Source: Gemmatimonadota bacterium
GTDB lineage: Bacteria > Gemmatimonadota > Gemmatimonadetes > Palauibacterales > Palauibacteraceae
Direction of reading: 5' to 3'
Length of the DNA: 64,000 bases
Assembly: GCA_039589195.1 (NCBI GenBank)
Contig: JBDHHV010000017.1
Span: 11,237 to 75,236 of the forward strand
Part shown: positions 37,181 through 58,668 of the stretch, in pieces
How the letters are laid out: the number at the start of each line of letters is the position of its first letter
Numbering within the stretch: position 1 is the first letter of the stretch
Translations under genes and position numbers: made by a program
Notes under the pieces: model-generated
What the model was told of the DNA's origin: nothing
What the model saw: only the letters and a program-made list of their open reading frames with translations
The model's database searches: none

Positions 37181-39646
37181 ATGGACACGCTTCTCCAGGA
37201 CATTCGCTTCAGCCTCAGGACTCTCAGGAAGAGCCCTGTCTTCACGATCGTTGCCGCGGCGACGCTGGCCCTCGGGATCGGGGCCAACACCGCGGTGTTC
37301 AGCGTCGTGAACGGAGTGCTGCTGCGAGATCTTCCGTACGAGGAGCCCGATCGGTTGACGTTGATCTGGACGAACTTCGGGCCCGACCTGCCCCAGAATT
37401 GGGTGTCTGGGCCCGAGTTCGTGGAGATGCGCGAGTTCCAGACGCAGTTCGAGGATATCGGCGTCGTGGTGCCCACGACCGTGAGCTTCACGGGACAGGG
37501 GGAGCCCGAACAGATCGGCGCGGCCGGCGCGTCGGGCGGGTTCTTCCAGGTTCTGCGCGTGTCGGCCGCGCACGGTCGGCTGTTCGGGCCCGAGGATGAC
37601 ACCCCCGCGTCCGCACCCGTCGCGGTCCTGGATCACGGCTTCTGGCAGCGACGCTTCGGTGGGGAGGAGAGCGTGGTCGGACGAACGCTGACCGCGGATG
37701 GTGTGACGTACACCGTGATCGGGGTGCTGCCGCCGGACTTCCGCGTTCGCCACCCCGATGCACAGTTCCCCGATCGAATCGACATGTGGGCCCCCATGAT
37801 CCCGATCCTCGGGGCCGAGTACGAGCAGTTGGGTCGCGGCGGACACTTCCTGCGCGCGTTCGGGCGCATGAGGCCGGGCGTGAGCCTGGCGCAGGCGGAG
37901 GCCGACATGCACTCCACCGCGGTCCAGATGCAGGAGAGGACACCGCAGTACTACGACGGGGTCGAGGGCTGGGACATCACGGTGCTCTCGCTTCACCAGG
38001 ACCTGGTCGAGGACGTGAAGCCGGCGCTCATCATCCTGCTGGTTGCGGTGCTCTTCGTTCTTCTCATCGCGTGCGTGAACGTGGCCAACCTCCAGCTGAC
38101 CCGTGCGGCCGGGCGAGAGCGCGAGATCGCGTTACGCTCCGCGCTCGGCGCCGGACGCGGCCGCCTCTTCCGGCAGCTCCTCACGGAGAGCCTGGTTCTG
38201 GGGCTGGTCGGGTCCGCGCTCGGTCTGGTGGTGGCGTTCGGTCTGGTCCGGGTCCTCATCGCCGTGGCCCCTGACGCCCTCCCATTGCGGGACGTGATCG
38301 GGATAGACGGAACCGTGCTTCTGTTCACTCTTACCCTCGCCGTAGCCACCGCGCTGCTCTTCGGTCTCGCTCCGGGGCTCGTGTCGCTCAAGAGGTCTCT
38401 GTTCGGGTCCCTGAAGGAGGGTGGACGGGGCAGCACGGCGGGCATCGGTGGTGCGCGGCTCCGGACCGCGCTCGTGGTGTCGGAGATCGCGCTCGCGATC
38501 GTGCTGCTCGTAGGTGCCGGATTGATGATGCACAGCCTCAACCGGCTACTCTCGGCCGATCCGGGCTATTCGACCGAACAACTCATAACCCTGCAGATCT
38601 CGCTCCCCAACAGCCGTTACGATGCGGAAGCGACGCGGTCGTTCTGGGATCGGCTCGTGGAGCGCGCCGAGGCCCTCCCGGGGGTGGACCAGGTGGGCCT
38701 GGTCTCACATCTCCCGTTGAGCGGTGCGTATGCGTCGGGCACGACCAGGGTAGAGCGGTCCGAGGCCATGCAACCGGACCCGGGCGACAACTTCGCCTCC
38801 ATCGAGGCGGAGCGTCGCTGGGTAAGCCCGGAGTATTTCCAGACCATGGGGATCCAACTGATCGCGGGTCGGATGTTCACGATCGCGGACAACATCGACG
38901 CGCCTCTCGTCGCTATTGTCGACGAGGAGTTCGCTCGACGATTCTGGCCCGAAGAGAATCCGATCGGCCAACGGATCAGCATCAACCAGAACGCGGATGG
39001 GCGTGTTTGGCGAGAGGTCGTCGGTCTGGTTCGCCACTCGCGCCACTACGATCCGGGCACGATCGGACGCGAGGCCGCGTACTACCCGTACGCTCAGGCC
39101 GGCGTGAACACCATGTTCCTGGCCGCGCGGACGAGTACCGACCCCGCATCCGTGACCAGCGCGGTGCGTGAGGCGGTCTGGGCCCTGGACCCCGATCAGC
39201 CCGTATCGGACATCCGGACGATGGAGGACCGGGTGGGCGGGGCCGTCGCACAACCTCAATTCAACCTGTGGCTCCTGGCCGCCTTCGCCCTCATCGCACT
39301 CCTCCTGGCCGGGATCGGCATTTACGGCGTCATCGCGTACTCCGTTGGCCAGCGTCGTCACGAGGTCGGCGTGCGGATGGCCCTCGGTGCCGACCGCGCG
39401 GACGTGCGGTCGCTCTTCCTGCGTCAGGGCATGGTGTTGGTCGCCGTGGGCGTGGCACTCGGGGTCGTCGCGGCACTCGGGCTATCGCGGTTGCTCACGA
39501 GCCTCCTGTACGAGGTGAGCCCGGCGGATCCGGTCACGTACATCGCGGTCGCTCTCGTCTTGAGCACCGTGGCGGTGGGCGCGTGCCTGATTCCGGCTAT
39601 GGTTGCAACGCGGGTGGAGCCCGTGTCGGTGCTACGCGAGGAGTAG
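37181..39646 (+). CDS. MacB/FtsX-like duplicated orphan ABC permease (ADOP type), no N-terminal extension
   Basis: [81 protein letters not shown]. Confidence 0.92.
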
Positions 39647-39692
39647 CCCGGCAGCCTTCCAATCCGTGCGGGTCGAGCTATCTTCCGGCCCC

Positions 39693-41840
39693 ATGAATCG
39701 AGGCCACCCGGAGTTCACGTTTCGAGTTCAGCACGCTGCGGCGCCCCTCGCCCTGGCGATCTGTGCGCTCGCGCCTTGCTCGATGGCCGGGCAGGCCCCT
39801 GATAGCGTTCGCGCCGAGGCCGAGCGGGACACGCTGCCCGTATATCGAACGAGCGAGATCGCCGTGCAGGTCGCGCGGTCGGTCGCCGCTCTCGCGGGGC
39901 TGCCATACGCGATCAGCGTAGCCGACCGCTCCGCGGTCCAGGTCGGGGAACGCACCGTGTCCCTGGACGAGGCGCTCCGTTTCGTCCCCGGGCTGTTCGT
40001 GCACAACCGTCGCAACTACTCGCTGGGTGACCGGGTCACGGTGCGGGGGCAGGGTGCGCGCGCCCAGTTCGGGGTGCGGGGCGTCCGGGTCCTCGCGGAC
40101 GGGATCCCGCTCACCCTCGCGGACGGCCAGAGCACGCTCACCAACCTGGACCTCGCTTCGGTCGGGCGAGTGGAGGTGATACGTGGATCCGCTTCCGCGC
40201 TGTACGGGAACGCCGGCGGCGGCGTCCTCAGTTACCGAACCGAGCTTCCCGTCGACCAATCCCTGCTTCTGGAGCCGCGGCTTACGGGAGGCAGCCACGG
40301 GTTCCTCCAGACGCGGCTAAAGGCCTCCGGCTCGACGGGCGGTGTCTCGTATCTCGGCAGCCTGAGCTACCTGCGGACGGATGGCTTCCGAGACTTCTCG
40401 GAGGCCGAGGTGTTCCGCGCGAACGTGCGCGTTGCGGGACGTGTCGGCGAGACGGGAGAGGTCCGCGGTCTGCTCAACCTGTACAGCACACCCTTCGCCC
40501 AGAACCCCAGCTCGCTGTCGCTCGAGGACGCTCGCGATAACCCGCGGATGGCACGCTCGTTCATCATCTCCCAGGGCTCCGGCGAGGACGCGACGCAGGG
40601 ACAGGGCGGAGTGGCGCTCGATCTCCCGCTCGGTGAGACGGCGCGTTTTCGGGCTACGGCGTGGGGACTGTGGCGCGATCTGTGGAACCCGATCCCGGGC
40701 CGCATTATCCAGATCGACCGGCTCGGGGGCGGCTTCCGGTCGGAGGTCGCCGGCAGCCTCGGGCGGGACATCAGTTGGGTGGGGGGGGTCGATCTCGAGC
40801 TCCAGCGCGACGAGCGCATGGAATCGGAGAACCTGGGCGTCGACGAAGACGTGCCGGAGAGTCGGGCGCAGGAGGGCGAGCTGCTCCTCGACCAGCGTGA
40901 GCGCGTGCTGGGTCTGGGACCGTTCCTTCGCGTCGGCGTCGAACTGGGGGAGCGCTGGACGCTCACGCTGGGGGGCCGGCTCGACGTGTATCACTTCGAG
41001 GCGGACGATCGCCTTCTCACGGATGGCGACGACTCCGGGAAACGCACGTTCACCGAGTTCAGCCCGACTGCCGGCCTAGCCTTCGAAGCTACCGACTGGC
41101 TCCAGGTGTACGGCAACTTCTCGACGGCCTTTCAGACCCCTACCACGAGCGAGCTCTCGAACCAGCCGGACGGTTCCGGAGGGTTCAACCCCGATCTCGA
41201 GCCGGAGAGGATCGTGGGTGGCGAGCTCGGCGTGCGGGGCTCCTTCCAGGATGCTCGCCTCGGGTACGGGGTCTCGGCCTTTCTGGCCAACGTCAAGGAC
41301 GCGCTGATCCCGTTCGAGGGCCCGACCGAGGAGGTGTTCTTCCGGAACGCGGGCGAAGTGGGGCGGTCCGGTGTCGAGGTCGCCGTCGGTTGGCAGCCCC
41401 ACTCCGCCTGGCGCGTGGAGCTCGCGCAAACGATCCAGCGGCTGCGCTTCGAGGAGTTCGAGGTCGACGGTGACGATCTTGCCGGCAAGGACGAGCCGGG
41501 GGTCCCGAACCACTGGCTCACGCTCGGACTCACGCATACGCCGGATCTCGGGCTCAGGACCGAGGTCAACTTCCGGTGGGTGGACGCATACCCGGTGGAC
41601 GATGCCAACACGGCCTTCAACGACTCGTATCGGGTCGTCGATCTCCGCCTGTCACTCGACCGCACCCAGCGTGGGTGGCCGCTGCGCATGTTCCTGGGTA
41701 TCGACAACCTGTTCGATGAACGCTACAACGGATCCGTCGTCCCGAACGCGTTTGGTGCCCGCTACTACGAGCCGGCCCCCGGGTTCGAGGTGTACGGTGG
41801 AGTCAGCTGGCCGATCGGCTCGACGCGGGGCTCTCCCTAG
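39693..41840 (+). CDS. TonB-dependent receptor (YncD-like)
   Basis: Plug motifs SLDEALRFVPG, VRGQG...FGVRGVRVLADGIP, RVEVIRGSASALYGNAGGGV. Barrel motifs NPDLEPE, GIDNLFDERY. C-terminal W. Confidence 0.92.
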   Translation: MNRGHPEFTFRVQHAAAPLALAICALAPCSMAGQAPDSVRAEAERDTLPVYRTSEIAVQVARSVAALAGLPYAISVADRSAVQVGERTVSLDEALRFVPGLFVHNRRNYSLGDRVTVRGQGARAQFGVRGVRVLADGIPLTLADGQSTLTNLDLASVGRVEVIRGSASALYGNAGGGVLSYRTELPVDQSLLLEPRLTGGSHGFLQTRLKASGSTGGVSYLGSLSYLRTDGFRDFSEAEVFRANVRVAGRVGETGEVRGLLNLYSTPFAQNPSSLSLEDARDNPRMARSFIISQGSGEDATQGQGGVALDLPLGETARFRATAWGLWRDLWNPIPGRIIQIDRLGGGFRSEVAGSLGRDISWVGGVDLELQRDERMESENLGVDEDVPESRAQEGELLLDQRERVLGLGPFLRVGVELGERWTLTLGGRLDVYHFEADDRLLTDGDDSGKRTFTEFSPTAGLAFEATDWLQVYGNFSTAFQTPTTSELSNQPDGSGGFNPDLEPERIVGGELGVRGSFQDARLGYGVSAFLANVKDALIPFEGPTEEVFFRNAGEVGRSGVEVAVGWQPHSAWRVELAQTIQRLRFEEFEVDGDDLAGKDEPGVPNHWLTLGLTHTPDLGLRTEVNFRWVDAYPVDDANTAFNDSYRVVDLRLSLDRTQRGWPLRMFLGIDNLFDERYNGSVVPNAFGARYYEPAPGFEVYGGVSWPIGSTRGSP

Positions 41841-41944
41841 CGGGGCTCTCCCCAACCAAGGCTCCCGCAAGCAGCTCTCCCTGGCGTGGCTCCCTCGGGG
41901 GCTCCCGCCCTTCGCTCGGAAACGGACCGTCACACGAGAAGAGA

Positions 41945-41976
41945 ACGGGCTCCCGGGAGGGATCCCGGAAGCCCGT
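41945..41976 (-). terminator. Probable terminator between convergent genes
   Basis: 14-bp stem (one G-U pair) acgggcttccggga-tccc-tcccgggagcccgt on the minus strand, followed by TCTCTTCTC. Confidence 0.55.
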
Positions 41977-42055
41977 CGTTCTGGAGCTGCCGCCTGGACG
42001 CGCCCTCGGACGCGGCTGCGCCCTCAGACCCGGCCGGCCGGAGTCGACGTCCGCG

Positions 42056-44503
42056 CTACGGCCTCAGTACCAGGTTCAGGTACATGCGCACACCCGGCAC
42101 CGCCGTCCCGCCTGTCGGCGCATTCCCGATCGCGATCCGCATGAACATCCCGATCGTGTCGCCGGGGTTCACGCAGAAGTCCTGGGTCTCGCCCGAGCAC
42201 AGCGGGTGCTTGAGCTCATACCAGATGAACTCGTCGGATGGATCGGAGCCATCGAACCCGATGCTCCCCCCACCGTCCTGGCCAGCGTCTGTGGCCCCGC
42301 AGATCGCGCTGCCCGTGAGGCAAGTGGACTCCAGGTAGCGATCGACGAACGTCTGCGTCGTCGAGCCCCTGACCTTCTCCTGGCCGATCTCGAACAAGTC
42401 GTCGTTCACATCGGCCGTGCCATCGGACAAGCCCCCCACATCGAACTCGTACGCGACGGCCGTGTTATCCTCGGACGAAGGCCGCGGGAGCTTGAACCCG
42501 AGGTAAAGGTCCGTGCCGTCATGCAGCCAGTAGAGCGTGCCGTCCGGCTGCGTTCCGGGTCCCCCGCCGGACAGATTCAGCGGCCCGATCGACATCGAGT
42601 CCGCGCAGTTCGGATCCGTCCAAACGCCATCGCGGCTCCCGTCGGTCACGTCCGGGGTGGCGCACACCTGAGCCTCGAACTCGACCACGAGGTCGTTCGC
42701 CCACACCGGCACCGACGTGGAGGAGGCCGGCAGGAACGTGTCGAGTCCGGGCACCGGCCCGTTCGGGAACCCGCTCGGGCCCGGGCCTACGGTTCCCGGC
42801 GGGGTGTCGCTCTCCGTGTCGCCGGGCTCCAGATCGCACGGGCCGGCATCCCCCGGAAAGCCGCTTCCCGTGGTTTCGAGGGTGCCACTCACGGCGATCC
42901 CGCACCCGAGCGCCCACAGCTTGGTCCTGTCATCGCCGATCGTCCACGCCACCTGCACCAGGCCCGTAGATCCCGTCGTGAAGTCGACGTGCGCCAGGCT
43001 GTTGGTTCCGTGCACCTGGCCCGCCACGCACGTCGCTTCGGGGCCGTACTTCGCGATTGATGCCGGGTCGCCCGGGGCGAGATCCGCCGGACAGGCGACC
43101 CCGACGGCACCGGGATCATCCGCATCGGGCTCGGCGAACACGTGCACCGTGGCCCCTTCGTCGGCCATGCCCTGCGGGCCCACCGGGTCTCCCACTTCGT
43201 CGAACACGGACAGCTGTACATCGGTCGTGCCGAAGGCCGCCACGTTGGGCGTCAAGGTGGTCGAGTTCAGCATCGCCGCCGGCCGAGCGATCACGAAGTC
43301 GCTGCCGGGCGAGACGCCACCCAGATCTCCACCGGCGCTGCCGTGCCCGACTGCGCCGGTTGCCACCAGCTCACGTACGCCGAACACGCCGGCGAGCCTG
43401 TCGAACACGTGCTTCAGGATGGTGGGCTCCGTCGCTACCGTGGCGCAGGCGGCAGGATCGACGGGGGGCAAACTCAGGATCCCCTGGTCGTCCACCATGT
43501 GGATCGTGGCGACGTCCTCGAGGGCCGGATCGATGGCCGGGAACGGGTTGTCGCCGCCCTCGAACAGGATGCAGGAGCCGTCGGCCAGCGTGACCGCGTC
43601 GCTGAACGTGAAGTTCTTGCAGGTCCACGTCGGGATGTCCATCAGCGCCGAGGGCAGGAGGATTCGACCATCGGGCGCCGTGGCACCCTCGCAGTCCGAG
43701 ATGCCGGTGATCGTAACCACGCCACCCTGGCTGTTCGGTGCGACGATGAGTGTCGTCTCGTCCAGGGTCAGTTCCGCCCCGCGATTCATGTCGGCGACGC
43801 ACTGGACGAAGTCCTCTCCGGACGCGGTCCCGAAGCAGGAGCCGCCCGAGTCGTCGAGGAGGAAATTGATGTTCTGGTTGCTACCGCTTCGGATGTACAG
43901 GATCTGGTTGTTCAGCGGCTGACCCTGGGACGGATCGTCGGTCACTCCGAAGTCCCGGAAGCCGAGGTCGACGCTCGACGTTCCGACCTGCAGGCTGACC
44001 CAAACCCGCCACAGCTCCTGCGTGGTTTGCCCCCTCAATCTCGGGGTCCTCCATTGCGTCTGGTAGAAGGTACCGGTCGCGTCCGTCTTGACGATCACCG
44101 GCGATGCGCCGCTGATGTCGACGGTGCCGCTCCCACCGCTGTCGGGCACGTAGTCGCCGGTGATCGCGTCGATCGTGAACCGGTACGCCATGACCTTGAG
44201 GCCGCTCTCGAAACCCGATACGAACGCGCCCGTGGGCGGTGTCGCGGCCGTGGACGCACGGAAGAAGAAGCCGGCGGTCCCGACGTGGTGGTCCGGGTCC
44301 CGCATGTCGGCGTAAGCGTCGCACGGCGACTCCTGGCTACTGAGGCCGGGAGCACCGGCGGGATCCGGCATGCAGGTGGTGGAGCCGCCGGCAACGTGCG
44401 TGGCGGCGATGGGCAACGACTCCGGACCCGCCGGAGAACGCTCGGAGTCACTACAGGCTACGACGAGCGTAGCGCACAGACCTGCAAGTAGCAGGCGTTT
44501 CAT
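42056..44503 (-). CDS. Large Cys-rich surface lipoprotein with C-terminal DOMON/CBM9-like domain (815 aa)
   Basis: Lipobox LVVAC. Beta-rich, acidic, many Cys. C-terminal GTLYWLHDGTDLYLGF...AVAYEFD...FIWYELKHPL resembles DOMON. AAGGAG upstream. Confidence 0.6.
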   Translation of the reverse strand: MKRLLLAGLCATLVVACSDSERSPAGPESLPIAATHVAGGSTTCMPDPAGAPGLSSQESPCDAYADMRDPDHHVGTAGFFFRASTAATPPTGAFVSGFESGLKVMAYRFTIDAITGDYVPDSGGSGTVDISGASPVIVKTDATGTFYQTQWRTPRLRGQTTQELWRVWVSLQVGTSSVDLGFRDFGVTDDPSQGQPLNNQILYIRSGSNQNINFLLDDSGGSCFGTASGEDFVQCVADMNRGAELTLDETTLIVAPNSQGGVVTITGISDCEGATAPDGRILLPSALMDIPTWTCKNFTFSDAVTLADGSCILFEGGDNPFPAIDPALEDVATIHMVDDQGILSLPPVDPAACATVATEPTILKHVFDRLAGVFGVRELVATGAVGHGSAGGDLGGVSPGSDFVIARPAAMLNSTTLTPNVAAFGTTDVQLSVFDEVGDPVGPQGMADEGATVHVFAEPDADDPGAVGVACPADLAPGDPASIAKYGPEATCVAGQVHGTNSLAHVDFTTGSTGLVQVAWTIGDDRTKLWALGCGIAVSGTLETTGSGFPGDAGPCDLEPGDTESDTPPGTVGPGPSGFPNGPVPGLDTFLPASSTSVPVWANDLVVEFEAQVCATPDVTDGSRDGVWTDPNCADSMSIGPLNLSGGGPGTQPDGTLYWLHDGTDLYLGFKLPRPSSEDNTAVAYEFDVGGLSDGTADVNDDLFEIGQEKVRGSTTQTFVDRYLESTCLTGSAICGATDAGQDGGGSIGFDGSDPSDEFIWYELKHPLCSGETQDFCVNPGDTIGMFMRIAIGNAPTGGTAVPGVRMYLNLVLRP

Positions 44504-44723
44504 ACACAAGCTCCTTGGAGACGAGGGAGAAAGAAGACGACCAGTAACGGGACCGCGACTGCTCAGAGACGGCCGCGAATGTGCACCGTGTAAGAGGAAG
44601 CCGCAAGCCCGCAGTATTTAAAGACTTGCCGGTCTCTTATTCCGCAATGCGATCATGCTCTCCGACGGAGGGCCCGGGTTACCGGTTTGGTCGGGAGAGT
44701 CGTGGCGGCGAGTCGAGGGGAGG

Positions 44724-47320: not shown

Positions 47321-47386
47321 CGGCCCCCGGGCTCGTTTCGCGGCGGGCCCCGTGGATCTTTTCCTCTCCTTTCCTGTACCTGCGTC

Positions 47387-47407
47387 ATCAATACATTGTT
47401 CATTGAT
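47387..47407. promoter_or_regulatory. Putative PadR operator (ATCAAT-N9-ATTGAT)
   Basis: AT-rich inverted repeat 13 nt upstream of the PadR start. Confidence 0.55.
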
Positions 47408-47420
47408 ACATGAACCGGAG

Positions 47421-47783
47421 ATGGACGTGCGTGACCCGAGAGACCTCCTGCCGCTAACTCCGTTGTGGTACAACATCCTGCTCGCGCTGACGGACGAAGT
47501 CCGGCACGGGTATGCGATCATCAAGGAGATCGAGAGCCGAACCCGCGGGAGCATGGTCCCGGCGACGGGAACCGTGTATCTGGCTCTCCAGCGCCTCCTC
47601 GAGGAGGGGCTCATCGTCGAGGAGCCCGCGGAGCCCCCAAAAGACCGCCGGCGCCGGCGGCGATACGCGCTCACCCCGTTCGCGCGCGAGGTCATCGCCG
47701 CGGAGACCGAGCGCATCGCGATGCAAATCAAGGTGGCGGTCGAAAAGGGGGCCGTCCCGCACTCCGTGCTCGAATCCTCCTGA
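47421..47783 (+). CDS. PadR-family regulator (LPLTP...ILLAL subtype)
   Basis: ILLAL...RHGYAIIKEI, GTVYLALQRLLEEGLI, RRRYALTPF. Confidence 0.9.
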   Translation: MDVRDPRDLLPLTPLWYNILLALTDEVRHGYAIIKEIESRTRGSMVPATGTVYLALQRLLEEGLIVEEPAEPPKDRRRRRRYALTPFAREVIAAETERIAMQIKVAVEKGAVPHSVLESS

Positions 47784-47807
47784 CCGTCCCCCGATCGCAC
47801 TGAGCTC

Positions 47808-50531
47808 TTGTACTCGCTCGTCTTCCGGATTCTGCTCCGCCTCTACCCCAAGTCTTTCCGCACAATGCACGGCGAGGACATCCTCGCCACGCTCGAAGAC
47901 CGGCTGACCGAAAGGGGCTCAAGAGGAGGGCTCGCCGTCTCCCTTCACGCCCTCCGGGAGCTCGCAGTCCTGATTCGCTCGCTCCCGGGCGAGCGTGCGC
48001 GGGAAGCCGACCGCAGGCGGCGGAACCGTCGGCTCTCATCCGACCGGGAGAGCCTGATTCATTCGACGCTCCAGGACCTCCGCCATGCGGGTCGCGGATT
48101 CTGGCGAGCTCCCGTTTACACGGCGGTGATAGTGCTGACGCTGGCTCTCGGGATCGGAGCCAACACGGCCATCTTTTCCGTGGTCAACGAGGTCCTGCTC
48201 AGCGGGGTTCCCTATCACGATCCCGATCGGCTGGTCCTGATCTGGAACCGGTTCGACTCGCTCGAGAACGAGCGGAACTGGGTCCACGATCTTCAGGTTC
48301 GCGACCTCCGCGACCAGGCCACGGTCTTCGAGGGTATCGCGGCGATGCAGATGGTGTCGGGTCGTATCCTCGGGGGAGACCGGCCCATCCACACCGACGT
48401 CGCTCGGGTCTCGAGCAGTTTCTTCGAGTTGCTCGGTGTGGAGCCTCTGCTCGGGCGGACGTTCCGGGAGGGAGAAGACGTGTGGGCCTCTCCGTGGGTC
48501 GTCCTGATCACGCACGAATATTGGACCCGAGAGTTCGCCCAGGATCCGGACATCGTCGGAAAGAAGATCCGTGTCGGCTGGCCGATGATGGAGATCATCG
48601 GGGTGCTGCCCAGGGACTTCGATTATCGGATGTACGAGACGCCGGACCACCGTGTCAGACCGGAGCTGTGGATCCCGCACCAGATCGACTACGGGTGGTG
48701 GGAACGCGCGATACCGGGCAACGGAGTAGCGGTGTTGGCGCGTCTGCGGGAAGGCGTGCCCGACACTCAGGCCCGCCAAGATCTGGAACGCGTCGCCGGC
48801 GCGCAGGACCGGCGCTTCTTCGACAGCGCGGGGCTCCGGTTCGACATGGTCCCTCTGGAGACCGACCTGGTGAAGGACGTGCGGCCGGCAATACTGCTTC
48901 TCGTCGGTGCCGTGGCCTTCGTGCTCCTCATCGCGATGGCCAACATCGCGACCCTGGTCCTCGCGCGGACCCAAGTTCGCCAGGGCGAGCTGGCCATTCG
49001 CCACTCGCTGGGCGCCTCGAGCGCGCGGGTCATGAGGCAGGTGCTCACGGAGAACATCGCCCTGGCGCTCGCTGGGGGACTCCTCGGCCTGGAGTTCGCT
49101 CTCCTGGGCACGCGCTTGCTGGTGGAGCTCGCTCCGGTCGAGCTCCCGTGGCTGGCGGATATCGGGGTCGACGTGCGGGTCCTCGCTTTTACCCTTGTCC
49201 TGACGGTGGTGACCGGGCTGATCTCCGGGTTGGCCCCCGCGTGGCAGGCTCGCCGGGTAGACCCGGTCCGGGCCCTCAAGGAGCTCGGGCGTCCCGGCTC
49301 CGAGACCCGCCGCGTGCGCCGCCTGCGTGGGGCGCTGATCACGCTCCAGTTCGCCCTCTCGCTGGTTCTCGTGGCGGGAGCGGGACTGTTGATCCGGAGC
49401 TTCAACCGTCTCGTCGACGTGGACCCGGGGTTCCGCCCGGAGAATACTCTCACCTTCTCCGTATACCTGATGGAGGAGTACGAGGACACCTCGAAGAGCA
49501 ACGCGTTCTATGCAGAGCTTCTCGAGCATCTCCGGGAGCTGCCGGAGGTCGCGGCGGTCGGGGGAGCGAGCGCGCTTCCGCTGAGCGCACCCGCCTACGG
49601 TCCGATCTTCCGCACCGAGCCGGCCTTTCAGGTGAATCTCTTCTTGTTGCCGGGACACGGACTCGAGCCGGAGCCGTTGCTGAGAGATCGGGACGCCTGG
49701 GTCTTGTCCGATCTCAACGCCGCGCTGCCGGGTTACTTCGAGGCGGCGGGAATCTCGCTCGTGGACGGCCGGGAATTCACGGACGCGGATGGCGCCGGCG
49801 CGGTACCGGTCGTGGTCGTGGACGAGCAACTCGCGGGGACGCTCTGGCCCGGCGAAGATGCCGTGGGTCGGGAGGTGTGGGCCCTGGACGGTTGGCGCAC
49901 CGTAGTCGGGGTCGCGCGCCACACCCACCACCACGCGTACGGGCGCGTAGGGCGGCCGCAGCTGTACTTCCCACATGCCCAGGTTCGGAGTGGCCGCGTC
50001 TCGATGGTCGTGCGAACGACGGGCGATCCAGCCTCCCTCGTCCAGGCGATCCGTCAGCGGGTCGATCGAGTCGATCCGCAGGTCCCGATCGGTGACATCC
50101 GGCCCCTGGACGAACTCGTGCAGGAGGCGTTCGCGCAGCCCCGTTTTCTGATGACGCTGATGAGCATCTTCGCGGCTGCGGCCGCGTTGCTGGCGGCAGT
50201 CGGCATCTACGGGATCCTCTCGTTTGCCGTGAGTCGAAGGCGGCGGGAGATCGCGGTCCGGATGTCGATCGGTGCGCGACCCCGCGATGTCGCCTGGCAG
50301 GTGATCGGGCAGGGCGTGGGGCTGGCGGCTGCAGGGTCGGTGCTCGGCCTGGTAGCCGTCCTCGCCATGGGGCGTCTGATGGAGAGCCTGATCTACGGGA
50401 TTCAGCCGTACGACCCCTTCACGCTCGTCGCCGCCGCGCTCGGCGTCCTCGGGCTCGCCCTCACCGCCTGTTGGATCCCCGCGCGGCGTGCGGCCTCCGT
50501 CGACCCCCTTTCAGTCCTGACCTCGGACTAG
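47808..50531 (+). CDS. ADOP-type orphan MacB-like permease with N-terminal 'LLRLYPxxFR' extension
   Basis: N-terminus [66 protein letters not shown]. Confidence 0.9.
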   Translation: MYSLVFRILLRLYPKSFRTMHGEDILATLEDRLTERGSRGGLAVSLHALRELAVLIRSLPGERAREADRRRRNRRLSSDRESLIHSTLQDLRHAGRGFWRAPVYTAVIVLTLALGIGANTAIFSVVNEVLLSGVPYHDPDRLVLIWNRFDSLENERNWVHDLQVRDLRDQATVFEGIAAMQMVSGRILGGDRPIHTDVARVSSSFFELLGVEPLLGRTFREGEDVWASPWVVLITHEYWTREFAQDPDIVGKKIRVGWPMMEIIGVLPRDFDYRMYETPDHRVRPELWIPHQIDYGWWERAIPGNGVAVLARLREGVPDTQARQDLERVAGAQDRRFFDSAGLRFDMVPLETDLVKDVRPAILLLVGAVAFVLLIAMANIATLVLARTQVRQGELAIRHSLGASSARVMRQVLTENIALALAGGLLGLEFALLGTRLLVELAPVELPWLADIGVDVRVLAFTLVLTVVTGLISGLAPAWQARRVDPVRALKELGRPGSETRRVRRLRGALITLQFALSLVLVAGAGLLIRSFNRLVDVDPGFRPENTLTFSVYLMEEYEDTSKSNAFYAELLEHLRELPEVAAVGGASALPLSAPAYGPIFRTEPAFQVNLFLLPGHGLEPEPLLRDRDAWVLSDLNAALPGYFEAAGISLVDGREFTDADGAGAVPVVVVDEQLAGTLWPGEDAVGREVWALDGWRTVVGVARHTHHHAYGRVGRPQLYFPHAQVRSGRVSMVVRTTGDPASLVQAIRQRVDRVDPQVPIGDIRPLDELVQEAFAQPRFLMTLMSIFAAAAALLAAVGIYGILSFAVSRRRREIAVRMSIGARPRDVAWQVIGQGVGLAAAGSVLGLVAVLAMGRLMESLIYGIQPYDPFTLVAAALGVLGLALTACWIPARRAASVDPLSVLTSD

Positions 50532-50557
50532 AACCTGCCCGGTACACCTCCGCCCCC

Positions 50558-50611: not shown

Positions 50612-50686
50612 CTATTGAAGCTATAGGGGTGCGTCCTCGTCGAGCGTCGACGTCGGCCGTCCCCGAGCATCCGAAGGAGGCATACG

Positions 50687-51967
50687 GTGAACAAGAGCTC
50701 AACGATTCTGGCCTTTACGATCGCCGCCGTGGCGTGGGCGGTGCTGCCCGCTGCGACTCGGGCCACCCAGCAACACGGTGCGCCCACATACGAGACCGAC
50801 ACGTTCTCCACGACGGGCGAGACGATCCCGGGAACCGGCCGGATCGGTGGCATCGCCGTGGATCGGTTCGGGTACGTGTACGTGGCCAATTTTGATCTTG
50901 GCGTGTGGCGGATCTCTCCCGGGGGAGAGGCTCGTCAGCTGGCCGATGGGCTGTACGGCTCGTCCGGAAACGTCGTCGCGCCGAACGGCGACCTTCTCCA
51001 GGGCAATTGGCTGGCGAACACGATCGTCCGCATCGACCGGCAGGGCGAAGTCCATCCGTTCGTGAGCGGCGGGCTCGACGGCCCGGTCGGGATCACGATC
51101 GCACCGAGCGGGGACATCTTCGTGGTGAACTCCCGCGGGAATCACGTGACCAGGATCAGTCAGGACGGCTCGGAGGTCACGGAGTTTCTCAGGCACGAGC
51201 TGCTCCAGCAGCCCAACAGCATCGTCGCCGACCGCGAGGGCAACCTTTTTGTCGCGAACCTCAGCAACACGTCGATACTCAAGATCACGCCCGACGCTGA
51301 GGTGGAGGAGATCGCGCGGCTTCCCGGGCAGGGGAACGCCCACCTCACATTCGGATCCGACGGAGCGCTGTACGTGACCAAGATCTGGGACCACGTGGTC
51401 ATGCGAGTCCAGCTGGACGGCACGTACGAGGTGGTCTCGGGGAACGGACTGGAGGGCTTCCAGGATGGCCCGTTGGGTGAATCGATGGTCGCATACCCGA
51501 ACGGCATCGTGCAATCCGGCGGAGTGCTCTACTTCAACAACCTCGACGGTGACATGGAGAACGGCGAGAAGGGCACGATCGTCGTTCGTCGGCTGTACCC
51601 GCCCTCGGGCCGCCGCGCGCTGCTCGAATCGCTCCACCGGGGTGGCGTGCCGGCGATGCTGGACACCCTCCAGGGCCTCGTGGGACAGGGAGACGACAGC
51701 ATGGGTCGCGCCGCACCCGGCATCTACGCCTTCGTCCGGTACCTCGTTCGGAAAGCGGAGACCGAAGCCGCATTCGCCCTCATCGAGCGAATGCTCGAGG
51801 GTGATCCGGACAAAGCCCGCGCGTTCGTGAACGCCGGGAACGTGCACGCCCTGGCCGGTAGCAGGGAGGAGGCCATGAGCTATTACCGGCGGGCTCTCGA
51901 CGCGGATCCGGACAACGAGCAGGCGAAGTTGCGCCTGGAAGCGGCCGAGCTGTTCAGAACCCCTTAG
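50687..51967 (+). CDS. Secreted NHL/SMP-30-like beta-propeller with C-terminal TPR
   Basis: Signal peptide. GIAVDRFGYVYVA, GPVGITIAPSGDIFV, PNSIVADREGNLFV, GFQDG. YYRRALDADPDN TPR. Confidence 0.8.
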   Translation: MNKSSTILAFTIAAVAWAVLPAATRATQQHGAPTYETDTFSTTGETIPGTGRIGGIAVDRFGYVYVANFDLGVWRISPGGEARQLADGLYGSSGNVVAPNGDLLQGNWLANTIVRIDRQGEVHPFVSGGLDGPVGITIAPSGDIFVVNSRGNHVTRISQDGSEVTEFLRHELLQQPNSIVADREGNLFVANLSNTSILKITPDAEVEEIARLPGQGNAHLTFGSDGALYVTKIWDHVVMRVQLDGTYEVVSGNGLEGFQDGPLGESMVAYPNGIVQSGGVLYFNNLDGDMENGEKGTIVVRRLYPPSGRRALLESLHRGGVPAMLDTLQGLVGQGDDSMGRAAPGIYAFVRYLVRKAETEAAFALIERMLEGDPDKARAFVNAGNVHALAGSREEAMSYYRRALDADPDNEQAKLRLEAAELFRTP

Positions 51968-51987
51968 ATCGCCACGCCAGGGTTGCA

Positions 51988-52025
51988 TCTCGGCGGTGGC
52001 CAGCACCTGAGGGCCACCGCCGAGA
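51988..52025. repeat. Perfect 14-bp inverted repeat (terminator or REP-like hairpin)
   Basis: tctcggcggtggcc-N10-ggccaccgccgaga; no U-tract on either side. Confidence 0.7.
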
Positions 52026-52230
52026 CCCGAGCTGACGCGTCTAGCCTGTTCGCGATCCGAGCGGCTCGAGCACCCACCAGCGTCGCACGGGCGCGTCCGC
52101 TTCTGACCACCCCCTCTTGCCTGGCTTCCGCACGACAATCCACCTTTCGCCTCTTCGTACACTGGCTTCACCACCGTGACTCGATCTCTGCGTGCACCGG
52201 CGATAGCCTGGAGGATCCGGAAGGACGGGA

Positions 52231-52653
52231 ATGAGAGTCTACATCAGGTTCCTCGCCCTGGTCCTGGCATGGTCGGGAGCGGGAGCGTCCACGGCACACG
52301 CGCAGGTCCCTGACAACACCGACGCGAGACCTTCCACACAGGACGGCATTTACACCCGGGAGCAGGCGCGGCGTGGTGAGGAGCTCCTTCGCGACGAGTG
52401 CTCCGCCTGCCACATGAATGCCTGGTTCGAGGGATCTTTCCTCCAGGCCTGGAATGGTGCGACTGTGGGTATGCTGTACGAGCGAATCCGCTCGACGATG
52501 CCCGAAGACCAGCCGAGTGGCCTCGAGAACCGGGAATACGCGGACATGCTGGCGTTCATCTTCGAGCTGAACGGAATCCCCTCTGGGGAGGAGGAGCTCG
52601 CCAGCCGGAAGAACGAGCTGGACAAGATTCTCATTCAGTGGAGGCAGCCATGA
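52231..52653 (+). CDS. Periplasmic monoheme cytochrome c
   Basis: Signal peptide, [16 protein letters not shown] heme motif, STMPEDQP (axial Met). Overlaps the PQQ dehydrogenase start (ATGA). Confidence 0.92.
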
Positions 52654-54633
52654 ACCGGGTGGTGCGCAGCAGCCGGTCCACCAGAGCCGTGCTCCCGATG
52701 GCCGCCGCCCTTCTGTTGGGTTGGGCACACCCCGCGGCATCGCAGCGTGCGGGCACCGAGAACGGCGAGTGGCGCTACTGGGGCGGGGACGAGGGCAGCA
52801 GCCGCTATTCGCCGCTGGATCAGATCGACGCGAGCAACGTCGGGGAGCTCGAGGTCGCATGGCGCTGGAAAGCGGCCAACTACGGCCCCGAGCCCGATTT
52901 CATCTACCGGGCCACGCCTCTCAAGGTGGGCGACAAGCTCTACACCGTCGCCGGTCAGCGACGCACCGTGGTGGCGATCGACCCGGCCACGGGCGAGACG
53001 CTGTGGATGTGGCGGATGAGGGACAATCCTCGCTGGCAAACCTCCACGAGAAAGAACTACGGCAAGGCAGTCGCCCACGCGGAGGTCGATGGCCGCGGTG
53101 TCATCTACACGATCACGCCCGGCTACTACCTGGCCGCGCTCGACGCCGACACCGGTCGACCCCTGCCCCACTTCGGGCTGAACGGGATCGTGGACCTCCA
53201 CCTGGGTCTGGGCGACTACGCGGTTCACCCGGACAGCGGGACGCTGGCGTACGGGGATATCACGGCGTCTTCCCCACCGATCGTGGTGAACGGGGTCGTG
53301 GTCGTGGGCAACTCGCACGATCGCGGATACTACCCGCGAAGAATCGAGAACATCCCGGGTAACATCCGCGGGTACGACGCGAAGACCGGGGCCCGGGGAA
53401 TACGGCCACGACACGTGGGAAGGCGACTCCTGGCAGTACACCGGGAACATCTCCGCGTGGGCCCCGCTGTCGGCCGACTCGGAGCGCAATCTCGTGTTCA
53501 TCCCCACCGATACGCCCACCAACGACTACTACGGTGGCGACCGGCTCGGGCAGAACCTCTACGGCACCAGCATCATCGCACTCGACGTCCGCACCGGGGA
53601 GCGGGTGTGGCACTATCAGATGGTACACCACGACGTGTGGAACTACGACAATCCCAACGCACCCAAGGTCGTCGACGTCACGATGGCGAACGGCCGCCGC
53701 GTCCCCATGGTAATCGAGACCACGAAGCAGGGGTGGGCGTACGTGTTCGACCGCGAGACCGGCGAGCCGGTGTGGCCGATCGAGGAGCGACCGGTGCCGC
53801 AGTCGGACGCTCCCGGGGAAGCCACCTGGCCCACGCAGCCCTTTGTCACCCGGCCCGCCGCGTTCGAGCACCAGGGGGTCATGGAGGACGACCTGATCGA
53901 CTACACCCCCGAGCTCCGGGCACAAGCGCTCGAGATCGCGCGGCAATATCGGATGGGCGGGATGTTCAATCCGCCTTCGCTGCTCGATCACCCCGACGGT
54001 ACGAAGGGAGCGTTTCACGCCCCCGGAGCGAACGGTGGCGCCAACATCCCGGGTGGCTCGTCGGTCGACCCGGAAACCGGCATCCTGTACGTGGCCAGCC
54101 AGCGTGGGCACACGGTGAGCTCGCTCGTGCCCGGAACGGAGTCGGAGCAGGCGTCTCCACGCTGCGCGCCGGCCGCGAGCTGTACGAGCAACGCGTCGTA
54201 TGTGTCGACGGGTCCGGGTGGGGTCGGTGGGCCACAAGGGCTACCGCTGCTCAAGCCGCCCTACGGGGCGATTACCGCGATCGACCTCAAGACCGGCGAC
54301 CAGCTGTGGCGCATCCCGAACGGAGACACCCCCGCGTCGGTGAGGGACCACCCGGCGCTCCAGGGCGTCGACCTGCCCAACACCGGAAAGCGCGCACACG
54401 CCAACATCCTCACGACCAGGACGCTGCTCTTTTATGGGGAAGGGCGACGCCAGGAGCCCTGGCTGCACGCGGTGGACAAGATGACCGGCGAGGAGATCGC
54501 CCGCATCGAGCTCCCTGCCACCACGAACACCGCACCCATGACGTTCATGCACGACGGCGTACAGTACATCGTGGCCGCCGTGGCGGGTGCGGGCGTCGAG
54601 GCCGAGCTGGTAGCGCTGCGCCTACCGGAGTAG
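52650..54633 (+). pseudogene. PQQ-dependent dehydrogenase (glucose/quinate DH-like, soluble), broken by a frameshifting deletion near 53390
   Basis: Frame A: [40 protein letters not shown]. Frame B: [47 protein letters not shown]. The usual WxFxTIP segment between them is missing. Confidence 0.85.
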
Positions 54634-54658
54634 CCCCCGGGTCTCTCCATCTCCCGCA

Positions 54659-54684
54659 GCGGGGCGTGGACCACCGCGCCCCGC
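54659..54684. terminator. GC-rich hairpin between convergent genes
   Basis: gcggggcgtgg-acca-ccgcgccccgc, 11-bp stem with one G-U pair; no clear U-tract. Confidence 0.4.
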
Positions 54685-54690
54685 GAACGG

Positions 54691-55377
54691 CTAGCGCCCA
54701 CAGAGACCGACGTCGATCTCTCCACACGCCACTTCGTAGGCCCTCGCCAGCCACCGGAGGAGCACCTCCCCGGCCTCCTCGGGACCGCGTCCGAAGACCA
54801 GGATCCCATCTTCATGCCCACCCATGGCCAGGATACGGCGCTCGGGAAGGACGGTCTCGCGGTACAACCGGTGCACCTCCACCGCCATCTCGGGCGTGCC
54901 GTAAGGAACCTTCGGGTCCGTGGTGGGGAGCCGCAGGTGCTGCGCCCGCCGCCACACGACCGGGCAATGGGCGTGGAGCACGCAACGGATCTGCGGGCCC
55001 AGATCGTAGGCGGCGCCGTGTGTCATGGATTCGGATGACGGTTCGGCACCGCCTCGGCTTCGGACCTGGTTGTGGCGGTAGTCGTACCGCTCGACGACGG
55101 CGAAGTCATCCAGGCCGAGGCAGCGCTTCCCGGAGGTCTGCGTGCCGGTGATGAGGAAGGATCGCCGGCCAAGACCCGCGTTAGGCGGACCGATTCGAGC
55201 GCTCACGTTCCCATATCCGGCACCTTCGTATCGGGCCGGGTCCTGCCCGACGAGGCCCGTCAGGGACATGATCTCCCGCCACGCGATCAGCTTGCAGGCG
55301 AGCTCACCGTAGCGCCGGGGCTCGAGGGGCACTCGCTCGTGCTCCACCTCGAACTTGATGACGCCTTCTTGTGGCAT
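54691..55377 (-). CDS. Class II aldolase/adducin family protein
   Basis: [45 protein letters not shown]. Confidence 0.88.
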
Positions 55378-55508
55378 GCGGGGCTCGACTCTCGGGTGAC
55401 TCGTGATGTGGTCGGTGGTCGTTCAGGATCTCGGTTCGGACACTCTCTCGCAACCGGCCAGCGTGGTTCGGCGACCCACGGCGCGACCCGACGGAGCGGA
55501 GCCCTACC

Positions 55509-55547
55509 CTTGATTACCGAGAGGTGGTACTCTTGATTACCGAGAGG
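55509..55547. promoter_or_regulatory. Exact 16-bp direct repeat CTTGATTACCGAGAGG, period 23 bp; likely tandem PadR operators
   Basis: Copies at 55509-55524 and 55532-55547. The second copy sits in the quasi-palindrome ctcttg-attac-cgagag. About 55 nt upstream of padR. Confidence 0.7.
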
Positions 55548-55603
55548 AACGTGAGAGTTGGCTCGCGGACCTCGAGACTGGCCCGCAGAGCGCGAGGAAC
55601 ACG

Positions 55604-55936
55604 ATGGCGAGAGCGAAACCGGACATGATCAAGGGGACCCTGGATATGCTGATCCTGAAGGTCGTCTCGCTCGAACCCATGCACGGCTGGGGGATCAGCG
55701 AGCGGATCCAGGGTCTCTCGAGCGAGACGCTGAAGGTGAATCAGGGCTCGCTGTACGCGTCGCTCCATCGCCTCACGCGCGAAGGGTGGATCCGCTCCCA
55801 CTGGCAGACTACCGAGAACGGGCGTCGAGCCAGGTACTATCAGCTCACGCCACCTGGAAAACGTCAGCTGGGCACCGAGGCCGAGCGCTGGCAACGGCTC
55901 TCGACGGCGGTCCACATCATCCTGGCGACCACCTAG
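55604..55936 (+). CDS. PadR-family regulator, acidobacterial (TIGR03433-like) subtype
   Basis: KGTLDMLILK, PMHGWGISERI, VNQGSLYASLHRL, TENGRRARYYQLT, E..RW.RLS.AV..IL. Confidence 0.93.
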   Translation: MARAKPDMIKGTLDMLILKVVSLEPMHGWGISERIQGLSSETLKVNQGSLYASLHRLTREGWIRSHWQTTENGRRARYYQLTPPGKRQLGTEAERWQRLSTAVHIILATT

Positions 55937-55953
55937 AAAGCGGGAATAGACAC

Positions 55954-58668
55954 ATGCGATGGATCCATGACCTCCTCTTCAGGCTCAGAGCGCTGCTCGT
56001 GCCGCGTTTGATGGAGCAAGAGCTGGACGACGAGATCCGTTTCCACCTGGAGATGGAGGTCGAGAAGCTCGTAGGCCAGGGGATGGGAGAGGACGAGGCC
56101 CGTCGGCTGGCTCTCAACCGTTTTGGCGCGATCGGCCGGCAGAAGGACCGAGCCCGCTGGTCCTGGGGTGTCGGGCTCGCGCGTGACCTGCAGGCAGATG
56201 TACGGCTCGTCGCCCGCCAGATGAGACGGCACCCCGGGTTTGCCGCGGGTGCCGCCCTCACCCTCGCGCTCGGCATCGGCGCGAACACCGCGATCTTCTC
56301 CATCGCCGATCAGGTGCTTCTCCGCCGCCCCGCCGTGGATGATCCGGACCGGCTCGCCGCCATCTACACGACCTGCCGCCGGGGCAGCGTCAGGTGTTCC
56401 TCCTCGTACCCCGACTTCGAGGACTACCGCGACCTTTCCCGCAGCTTCCTCGACATGGCCGCGTACAGTCCGGTACCGCTCAACGTGGGCGACCCCGAGG
56501 CCGCGCGGCTGGCGACCGGACTCCTGGTGACGGGCAACTACTTCGGACTGCTCGGAACCCGCATACACGTCGGGCGATCGATCCAGCCTTCCGACAACGA
56601 GACGGGTGCGCCCGCCCGTGTGACCGTCCTCGCGCACGGTTTCTGGCGCGACGCGTTCGGCTCCGACTTGGGGATCGTCGGCAAGACGGTGCGGTTGAAC
56701 GGGGTATCCTTCACGGTCGTTGGAGTCGCCACGGAGGGCTTCCGCGGATTGGATTTGAACGTGACGCCCGATCTGTGGCTGCCGATCCGCTCGGCCCGAG
56801 AGTTGGGACCCGCGGTCGGAGGCGCGGGAGAGGCGGACGCTGCCGAGAATCGGGGAATGCGGTGGATCGGCACGCTCGTCGGAAGACTGGGGCCAGGCGT
56901 GACGGTCCAGCGGGCGAGGGCGGATATGGATGGGCTCGCGCTGCGGTTGGGTGAGCAGTTCCCGCAAGAGCGAGCCGCGATCGACGGCGTCCGCGGGATT
57001 ACGGTCGATCCGGTGCGGGGCTACCTGCTGCCGCGTGGCTCCGAGGCCAGCTTGAAACGCTTCGTCTGGATGTTGCTCGCGGTCGTCGGTCTCAGCCTGC
57101 TACTCGCGGCGGCGAACCTGGCGAATTTGTTGCTCGCGCGCTCCACGACCCGAGGGCGAGAGATCGGGATTCGGATGGCCGTCGGGGCCGGACGCTCGCG
57201 CGTCGTTCGCCAGCTGCTCACCGAGAGTCTCGCCCTCTCACTGATCGGAGGCACCGCCGGTCTGCTGGTTGGGAAGCTCATGCTCGGGCTGCTCGGTGCC
57301 TTCCAACTTCCTGGAGCCGTCGCGATCGGCGACCTCGAGGTGGGGCTCGACACGGGCGTGCTGTTCTTCGCGCTCGGACTGTCGGTGTCGACGGCCTTCC
57401 TGTTCGGACTCGTCCCGGCGCTCCAGACGACCCGGCCGGACCTCGTGAAGGCCCTCAAGGGTGAGGTCTCACGGCGGCTCGGGAACCAGGGCCGATTGCG
57501 ACGATCCCTCGTAGCCGTGCAGATGGGCCTGTGCGTGGTTCTGTTGGTCGGATCGGGCCTCTTCATCCGGACGCTGCGAAATAGCCTGGCCACGGATCTC
57601 GGCTTCACGCACCGCTTCGTGACCACGGCACGGTTCAATCTCTCGCTCCTACGTTACTCCGAGGAGCGTGGGGTCGCCTTCGTAGACGAGCTACTCCGCC
57701 GGGTCAGGGAGATCCCGGAGGTGGAGGAGGCCAGCGTGTCGACTCTCGTCCCGTTCCAGGGCGCCGGCTTCCGTGGAATGTTCGCCGATATCGGGGGCTA
57801 CGAACCGGCACCCGACGAGGAGATCCGCCTCGACTACGTGGTGGTCGAGCCCGGCTACTTCGAGACCCTGGGTATCGGACTCGTCGAGGGGCGTGCGATC
57901 AGCGAGCGAGACTTCGAGGGATCACCAAGCGTCGTCGTGATCAATCGACACATGGCCGAGCGTTACTGGCCGGATCGAAGTGCTGTCGGAGGATCGGTCG
58001 CGTTTGCCGGTGCCGACTTCGAGTTCGAAGTGGTGGGGGTCGTGGACGACCCCGTCTGGGCTGCCGTGGGCGAGGAACCGACCCCGTTCGTCTTCCTACC
58101 GCTGGCGCAGAGACCGAGCTTCTCGACGAGTTTTCTCACCCTGGTGGCTCGTGGGAGCGGTGACCCACGAGGATTGTCGCCGAGCATCAGAGACCAGTTC
58201 CTGGTCCTGGATCCCGATCTCTCTCTCACGGAACTCCGCCCGTTGAGTGAGCAGGTGGGTGACGCGCTGATGCCTCAGCGGATGGGTACGGTGCTTCTCG
58301 GCATGTTGGGGGGCCTGGCGCTGCTCCTGGCGGCGGTGGGCATCTACGGAGTGGTGAGCTACAGCGTCCGGCGCCGCGCACGGGACATCGGGATCCGGAT
58401 CGCGGTCGGGGCTTCCGCCGCGGCCATCCGTCGGACCGTGGTCCTGGAAATGGCCATCCCGGTCCTCGCGGGGCTGGTCGGGGGTGCGGCGGTCGCACTC
58501 GGGCTCTCGCGGACGATCGAGACGTTCATGTTCGGGGTCAGCCCCAACGACCCGCTCACGTTCGTCGCCATAACAGCTCTCCTCGTAGTCGTGGCGTTGG
58601 TCGCGACGCTGATCCCCGCTCGCTGGGCAAGCCGACTGGACCCCATGCGGGTCCTCACGGTCGAATAA
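55954..58668 (+). CDS. ADOP-type orphan MacB-like permease with 'permease prefix' (ELDDEIRFHL) N-terminal domain
   Basis: ELDDEIRFHLEMEVE...[60 protein letters not shown]. Confidence 0.92.
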   Translation: MRWIHDLLFRLRALLVPRLMEQELDDEIRFHLEMEVEKLVGQGMGEDEARRLALNRFGAIGRQKDRARWSWGVGLARDLQADVRLVARQMRRHPGFAAGAALTLALGIGANTAIFSIADQVLLRRPAVDDPDRLAAIYTTCRRGSVRCSSSYPDFEDYRDLSRSFLDMAAYSPVPLNVGDPEAARLATGLLVTGNYFGLLGTRIHVGRSIQPSDNETGAPARVTVLAHGFWRDAFGSDLGIVGKTVRLNGVSFTVVGVATEGFRGLDLNVTPDLWLPIRSARELGPAVGGAGEADAAENRGMRWIGTLVGRLGPGVTVQRARADMDGLALRLGEQFPQERAAIDGVRGITVDPVRGYLLPRGSEASLKRFVWMLLAVVGLSLLLAAANLANLLLARSTTRGREIGIRMAVGAGRSRVVRQLLTESLALSLIGGTAGLLVGKLMLGLLGAFQLPGAVAIGDLEVGLDTGVLFFALGLSVSTAFLFGLVPALQTTRPDLVKALKGEVSRRLGNQGRLRRSLVAVQMGLCVVLLVGSGLFIRTLRNSLATDLGFTHRFVTTARFNLSLLRYSEERGVAFVDELLRRVREIPEVEEASVSTLVPFQGAGFRGMFADIGGYEPAPDEEIRLDYVVVEPGYFETLGIGLVEGRAISERDFEGSPSVVVINRHMAERYWPDRSAVGGSVAFAGADFEFEVVGVVDDPVWAAVGEEPTPFVFLPLAQRPSFSTSFLTLVARGSGDPRGLSPSIRDQFLVLDPDLSLTELRPLSEQVGDALMPQRMGTVLLGMLGGLALLLAAVGIYGVVSYSVRRRARDIGIRIAVGASAAAIRRTVVLEMAIPVLAGLVGGAAVALGLSRTIETFMFGVSPNDPLTFVAITALLVVVALVATLIPARWASRLDPMRVLTVE

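Follow-up and report, generated by a model that had tools for sequence, protein, structure and literature searches.

A 64,000-nucleotide stretch of a Gemmatimonadota genome (GenBank assembly GCA_039589195.1, contig JBDHHV010000017.1, positions 11,237 to 75,236; hereafter the window) encodes three permeases of the ADOP family (TIGR03434), found by an open reading frame (ORF) listing and family scans. Two of the three begin with a helical N-terminal extension, here called the head, and each of these two genes lies directly behind a gene for a small PadR repressor. We find that the head, although part of the permease polypeptide, evolves with the repressor and not with the body of the permease, a conclusion that is strongly supported by comparisons within this genome and with its relatives. 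A first-pass annotation of the window, made from its letters alone, had proposed from these three genes that the type of extension tracks the type of the adjacent PadR; this holds for all nine headed ADOPs of the genome, across 24 relatives and, for the head type with the motif LLRLYPxxFR (LYP), in three phyla.

In the genome itself (4.36 Mb in 246 contigs, 91.5% complete; the window sits on contig C17, of 77.9 kb) there are 29 ADOP N-termini, nine of which have a head. All nine headed ADOPs lie directly behind a PadR gene, as does none of the approximately 20 head-less ones. The genome-wide comparison of extension with PadR, which the first-pass annotation had put forward as a check, thus finds heads behind PadRs only. 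Nine of the ten solid PadR matches are the partners of headed ADOPs, and the tenth, on contig C1, is a longer protein with a C-terminal domain. Its heads are of four types, and each type goes with a PadR of a particular kind: perm_prefix_1 (four heads), LYP (two), a type with the motif ERRxWxAEWxAE (ERW, two) and perm_prefix_2 (one).

The wider sample comprised 131 matches to PF03551 in 24 related genomes, with their downstream DNA, and 10 loci from the genome itself. An ADOP gene comes next after 88 of the PadR genes, at a distance of -39 to +80 nucleotides, and all 88 of these ADOPs are headed, with heads of 71-114 residues. Louvain clustering of the phmmer graph of the heads, carried out without labels, returned five communities, namely perm_prefix_1 (42 heads), a type designated MRDW (18), perm_prefix_2 (12), LYP (11) and ERW (4), with one singleton. 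On the PadR tree every head type falls within one supported clade, so that types and clades correspond one to one; the few rows inside these clades that were scored as non-ADOP stem from truncated contigs, a decayed remnant or partners other than ADOPs. Among the long-frame ADOPs of a complete relative (G021) there is no clean counter-example of a headed ADOP without a PadR: one apparent exception comes second in a PadR-ADOP-ADOP tandem, and two more adjoin masked sequence.

Some loci of the sample are unusual in their gene content. At G021:C1:1637801-1643586 a PadR gene is followed by two headed ADOPs with nearly identical perm_prefix_1 heads, an arrangement of one repressor and two headed permeases. 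Locus L019 (G003:C106) has a PadR of the perm_prefix_1 clade (clade I), then a 120-residue ORF (961-1320) that keeps the perm_prefix_1 motif before passing into unrelated sequence; this ORF is probably a decayed permease gene. In one single-contig genome (G022) most TIGR03434 matches are partial, scoring 200-700 bits and covering half models, a pattern that suggests either numerous ADOP genes with frameshifts or decay, or errors of assembly.

Trees of the permease bodies and of the repressors were compared over the same 70 loci. The PadR tree requires five changes of head type, which is the minimum, and each type forms a clade with support of 96-99 in the Shimodaira-Hasegawa-like approximate likelihood ratio test (SH-aLRT), whereas the tree of permease bodies requires 21 changes. 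Well-supported branches of the body tree alone force at least 7, 4, 5, 3 and 3 changes for the five types. In a mirror-tree analysis the partial correlation of PadR with head, given the body, was 0.58-0.83, and that of head with body, given the PadR, was 0.15-0.39; this pattern held within types too. One PadR and head type can recur on a variety of permease bodies, which would also fit a selfish or merely linked cassette, spread by recombination and without functional meaning. We consider such a cassette highly improbable, given that the heads are conserved at the protein level and fold confidently (predicted local distance difference test, pLDDT, up to 96), that the pairing persists over three phyla and unrelated partner proteins, and that the PadR and head distance matrices co-vary within types.

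The strongest argument that the head is the match of the PadR is the portability of the LYP type across proteins other than ADOPs. A single-sequence search with PadR-A, the repressor next to the LYP-headed permease of the window, made with one genome per species, gave 17 loci in Gemmatimonadota, Acidobacteriota and Eremiobacterota, and in all 16 of the evaluable relatives, across the three phyla, an ORF with a LYP head directly follows the PadR gene. Eight of these 16 ORFs are 170-194 residues long, and seven of the eight consist of the head, one transmembrane helix and a conserved periplasmic domain of ~90 residues. Small or single-pass membrane proteins of 142-191 residues carry the LYP head at loci L100, L112 and L133-L140; at the first two, a PadR of the LYP clade is followed by a small non-ADOP membrane protein that opens with the LYP domain. 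On two metagenome contigs found without using PadR (L149 and L150), the LYP head continues into a Wzz-like chain-length-determinant module in one case and into a T2SSF-like module in the other, and each has directly upstream a PadR fragment whose best matches belong to the LYP clade (clade II). That the head keeps the same PadR clade on Wzz-like and T2SSF-like proteins argues that the PadR is matched to the head rather than to the permease.

A LYP-head profile matched 13,018 cluster representatives (50% identity) at E<=1e-3, and 1,903 at E<=1e-10. Among 150 representatives the domain is almost always at the extreme N-terminus (median start residue 1) of proteins of 71-910 residues, the C-terminal partners sampled include ADOP, T2SSF-like and Wzz-like modules, and no Pfam model lies over the head in these sampled proteins. 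The LYP head thus belongs to a large family that lacks a Pfam or NCBIfam model, which is partly a new point. In Gemmatimonadota, loci L133 and L135-L140 encode (at ~3170-3890 of each locus) a conserved family of proteins of 170-191 residues with LYP head, transmembrane helix and ~90-residue periplasmic domain, marked by the motif IDFxAxDPAGxFTLT...GDSIR; each lies behind a clade II PadR, and none has a Pfam match.

The three permeases of the window all exceed the curated cut-off of TIGR03434 (622.3 bits) over their full length, and in all three a single polypeptide contains two MacB_PCD (PF12704) and two FtsX (PF02687) domains. Permease 1 (37181-39646, + strand; 952.4 bits, with the alignment running from residue 4) starts at position 1 of the core and has no head; the distance from the upstream stop to the core is merely 39 residues of non-coding-like sequence. 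It has no PadR neighbour, because the gene directly upstream (36602-37063, +) encodes a GNAT-type acetyltransferase (PF14542 Acetyltransf_CG, 84.6 bits). Permease 2 (47808-50531, +; 828.1 bits, aligned from residue 88) consists of a duplicated MacB_PCD/FtsX body preceded by 83 extra residues, the LYP head (47808-48056, +), which begins 'LYSLVFRILLRLYPKSFR...'. Permease 3 (55954-58668, +; 807.9 bits) likewise has head and body, its 75-residue head (55954-56178, +) bearing the motif ELDDEIRFHLE...G....EA...A..RFG and scoring 43-49 bits (48.7) against perm_prefix_1 (NF038403, cut-off 30). The descriptions given in the first-pass annotation, of 37181 as lacking both extension and PadR, of 47808 as opening with an LLRLYPxxFR extension behind a PadR of the LPLTP type, and of 55954 as opening with a permease prefix behind one of the TIGR03433 type, are all upheld.

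The cut-offs of the NCBIfam models TIGR03434, TIGR03433 and NF038403 are exceeded by permeases 1-3, by the repressor of permease 3 (PadR-B) and by the permease 3 head, respectively. PadR-A does not reach that of TIGR03433, and neither NF038404 nor any other model picks up the LYP head. At E<=10 the permease 2 head gave no match to any Pfam or NCBIfam model, including NF038403 and NF038404 (perm_prefix_2, cut-off 35 bits); a paralogue at C32:12317 scores 34 bits against NF038404.

A gene for a TonB-dependent receptor (Plug and beta-barrel; 39603-41840, same strand) begins at or just past the end of permease 1 and may be an operon partner of this head-less permease. Two long ORFs of the window without a Pfam match, at 42056-44509 (-) and 7389-10046 (+) and of 817 and 885 residues, may not be real genes, given the GC content.

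Both repressors of the window exceed the PF03551 gathering score of 27 bits. PadR-A (47421-47783, +; PF03551 56 bits; sequence '..DLLPLTPLWYNILLAL..') is of a type with the motif LPLTP and sits in the clade whose partners all bear LYP heads (clade II); it scores 49.1 bits against TIGR03433, under the cut-off of 101.8, and is therefore not a member of that family. PadR-B (55604-55936, +; PF03551 71.6 bits) belongs to clade I and is of the TIGR03433 type (139.3 bits). PadR-A and permease 2 share a reading frame, with a TGA stop and eight codons between them (47781-47810), so that stop read-through there would yield a natural fusion of PadR, head and permease; the in-frame arrangement recurs at locus L097.

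Upstream of each repressor gene lies an AT-rich candidate operator. An ATCAAT-N9-ATTGAT dyad (47387-47407), 14 nucleotides upstream of the PadR-A start codon, occurs once in the window, against 0.03 expected, and once in the 4.36-Mb assembly. Two exact copies of TTGATTACCGAGAGG (55510-55524 and 55533-55547) precede PadR-B; these are the two matches in the window, against 0.02 expected, and exact copies occur nowhere else in the assembly. The PadR-B element is kept in the orthologous locus L086 and in L082, and the other PadR clades have their own AT-rich dyads or repeats at the same upstream position. As these upstream repeats are clade-specific and unique in the genome, they suggest private autoregulation, as in LltR of Listeria, with both elements as putative autoregulatory operators. 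A single operator word shared by each PadR clade was sought by 7-mer counts and rejected, since only words specific to sub-clades emerged.

We propose a signalling module of two genes, a PadR and the headed permease encoded directly behind it, in which the head serves as docking partner, a reading that the sequence comparisons make probable on balance. The PadR, a small winged-helix repressor, would most likely repress its own operon through the private AT-rich repeat just upstream. The helical head of 75-83 residues, placed at the cytoplasmic N-terminus of the permease directly before an elbow helix and the first transmembrane helix, would be the cognate partner of the adjacent PadR. The MacB-type body, with its two periplasmic domains, would sense or handle something in the envelope, and its conformational state would pass through the first transmembrane helix and the elbow helix to the head, which would hold or release the repressor. 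The window holds two head superfamilies that are not detectably related, perm_prefix_1 (HAAS-like) and LYP, each matched to its own PadR clade. The physical binding of PadR to head, the direction of control, the autoregulation and the nature of the signal are parts of the proposal that we infer. Headed permeases may still transport, as sensing and transport are not exclusive.

FtsX-fold permeases relay conformational signals across the membrane in the BceAB-BceRS sensor-transporters and in the mechanotransmission of MacB, LolCDE and FtsEX. Bce modules have an output to a cytoplasmic regulator across the membrane, as proposed here; they differ in needing a histidine kinase and a transporter ATPase, whereas the output here would be a tethered PadR, with no known ATPase partner.

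Profile-profile comparison with hhalign divides the heads into separate sets. The perm_prefix_1 and MRDW types and the N-domains of non-ADOP membrane proteins that partner PadRs are related at 87-96%. LYP and perm_prefix_2 match at 39%, or 66% with a deeper profile (E 3e-4 to 6e-5), their PadR clades are sisters, and the LYP head of permease 2 is only a remote relative of perm_prefix_2. Between the HAAS-like set (perm_prefix_1 and MRDW) and the LYP/perm_prefix_2 set hhalign detects no relation (<=3%), and the ERW type stands alone. The head models are helical and of moderate confidence: AlphaFold2 predicts helices at residues 2-11, 15-36 and 38-75 of the LYP head (pLDDT 77-90 over residues 1-60), and for the perm_prefix_1 head a confident hairpin (residues 17-41 and 46-60, pLDDT 83-96). 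At loci L007 and L010 (946-2277) a separate PadR clade is accompanied by a 444-residue protein with multiple transmembrane helices and a weak DUF4153 trace, the N-domain of which is related at the profile level to perm_prefix_1 and to MRDW heads.

The pairing of a PadR with a membrane-tethered partner has a published precedent. In the available text of Ravi et al. (2024, mSystems, PMC11237479) on the HAAS-PadR dyad, HAAS domains (PF22564; DUF1700/DUF1129/DUF1048) are always found with a stand-alone PadR, signal-dependent release of the repressor is proposed, and the HAAS fusions listed include FtsX-like transmembrane domains with MacB/PCD domains; the PadR-docking idea is therefore a rediscovery. 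As in that dyad, the systems described here combine a small stand-alone PadR gene with a membrane protein that has an N-terminal cytoplasmic helical domain. Unlike it, the window heads match neither PF22564 (HAAS) nor DUF1700, and LYP groups with perm_prefix_2. Three points go beyond what that available text describes: each head type keeps strictly to one PadR clade, it does so regardless of the permease body, and the LYP/perm_prefix_2 superfamily is large and apparently distinct. In Listeria monocytogenes, as far as the accessible portion of PMC6624303 goes, LltR and LstR are PadRs that mainly auto-repress an operon with a membrane protein: LltR represses lltR-lmo0600, Lmo0600 being a DUF1700 membrane protein, and the LstR partner, Lmo0421, is FtsW/RodA-like. 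These systems differ in belonging to Firmicutes and in having other membrane partners and no ADOP, and binding of regulator to partner is not reported in that portion of the paper. A literature search on ADOP, TIGR03434 or 'permease prefix' found essentially nothing.

In genomic logic the heads resemble HAAS. A stand-alone PadR lies alongside all 88 headed ADOPs of the wider sample, which was drawn via PadR, and all nine of the genome, and those LYP heads that were reached without using PadR likewise adjoin one. The placement is also that of HAAS, N-terminal and cytoplasmic with fusion to varied multi-transmembrane or sensor modules. The HAAS fold has three helices, the third kinked at a GxP motif; the AlphaFold2 models show three helices for LYP and a hairpin for perm_prefix_1, whose sequence has an FG(G/D)(V/P) motif, and neither model has a significant neighbour in the PDB. 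Membership of HAAS is not demonstrated, least of all for LYP. A tentative reading, possible but less likely than not, makes the LYP/perm_prefix_2 heads and, as a further case, those of the ERRxWxAEWxAE type evolutionarily independent of HAAS, several unrelated short helical domains having converged on tethering private PadR clades to membrane proteins.

Several points weigh against the docking proposal and its HAAS parallel. The trees were built with quick searches, and that of the permease bodies has little resolution in its deep branches. The PadR gene adjoins the DNA that encodes the head, so linkage contributes to their co-inheritance. Contact between PadR and head is a prediction from their pairing, and the operators are deduced from DNA letters alone. 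Scans of all head types against Pfam and NCBIfam at E<=10 matched only NF038403 and NF038404: neither window head gave a match to PF22564 or DUF1700, and the sole Pfam trace of HAAS is that of an MRDW head against PF22564 (E=0.11, 13 bits). Sequence-profile searches of the PDB with the heads returned only designed helical proteins and other noise, and Foldseek searches of the PDB with both head models gave 0 matches for one and none better than E=2.8 for the other.

The first-pass annotation had also noted that the 64 kb encode no ABC ATPase, and had inferred that the permeases may be membrane sensors rather than orphan transporters. The absence itself extends to the whole of contig C17, where there is no match to PF00005 and thus no cognate ATPase, fused or in an operon, of the kind that a MacB-type transporter has. 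As for a shared ATPase elsewhere, which it suggested looking for, the genome has 40 PF00005 matches on other contigs; ABC ATPases adjoin head-less ADOPs on C52, C184 and C64, while three of the MacB/LolD type, on C11, C49 and C143, have no permease neighbour. Since MacB/LolD-type ATPases exist elsewhere in the genome, a partner in trans is possible for the window permeases. The C64 locus (G000 C64:9503-16960, -), among the few ADOP loci with an ATPase in cis, has three tandem head-less ADOP genes and then one MacB-type ABC ATPase (8972-9418).

If the permeases were pure sensors that had lost transport altogether, the lack of an ATPase would be explained, and none of the nine headed ADOPs has an ABC ATPase on its contig, that of the window (78 kb) included. 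However, the scarcity is not specific to headed ADOPs. In G021, which has 50 ADOPs and 41 ATPase domains, there is no ATPase within 5 kb of 45 of the 50 ADOPs, made up of 35 of the 37 without a PadR and 10 of the 13 linked to one; within 3 kb an ATPase is found for 3 of the 13 PadR-linked ADOPs against 1 of the 37 unlinked, and so is slightly commoner when linked. These counts rule out a lack of ATPases specific to headed ADOPs. Having no ATPase nearby characterises the ADOP family at large, independently of head or PadR, as 'orphan' in the family name already records, and therefore does not separate sensors from transporters; the step from missing ATPase to sensor fails. On the body tree the head-less copies of this genome are scattered among headed ones, and both score equally well against TIGR03434. 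Complete loss of transport is thus very unlikely.

The same loci could alternatively be ordinary repressor and pump operons, in which the PadR directly senses a small cytoplasmic ligand and represses an export permease. The head would then dock or regulate a MacB-type ATPase in trans, oligomerise or aid membrane insertion, and would co-vary with the PadR only through adjacency. The head has the N-terminal cytoplasmic place that belongs to the ATPase domain in MacB; the three MacB-type ATPases without a permease neighbour would be available as partners. Repression of efflux pumps by PadRs is well known, as with LadR-MdrL in the accessible portion of PMC6624303. We nevertheless regard this explanation as unlikely. 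The LYP head keeps its PadR clade on single-pass, Wzz-like and T2SSF-like proteins, where docking of an ATPase would make no sense because the fused modules are unrelated and non-ABC. Head-less ADOPs never occur with a PadR, and the ADOPs adjacent to an ATPase on C52, C64 and C184 are head-less. The head, though equally adjacent to its PadR and its own body, tracks the PadR far better. The signalling module with the head as docking partner is the reading that we prefer.

ADOP permeases, of which the genomes counted here have 29-50 copies each, are among the most expanded gene families of Acidobacteriota and Gemmatimonadota. A head that travels with its PadR turns the label of 'orphan transporter' into a concrete design, in which a membrane protein would directly control a repressor. 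Matched and mismatched pairs of head and PadR inside one genome supply specificity controls for binding assays, and a very large N-terminal domain family that lacks a model is brought to notice. If the LYP heads did converge on PadR tethering independently of HAAS, soil phyla would have in the LYP family, with more than 13,000 clusters, a major one-step module for transmembrane signalling that has gone unrecognised.

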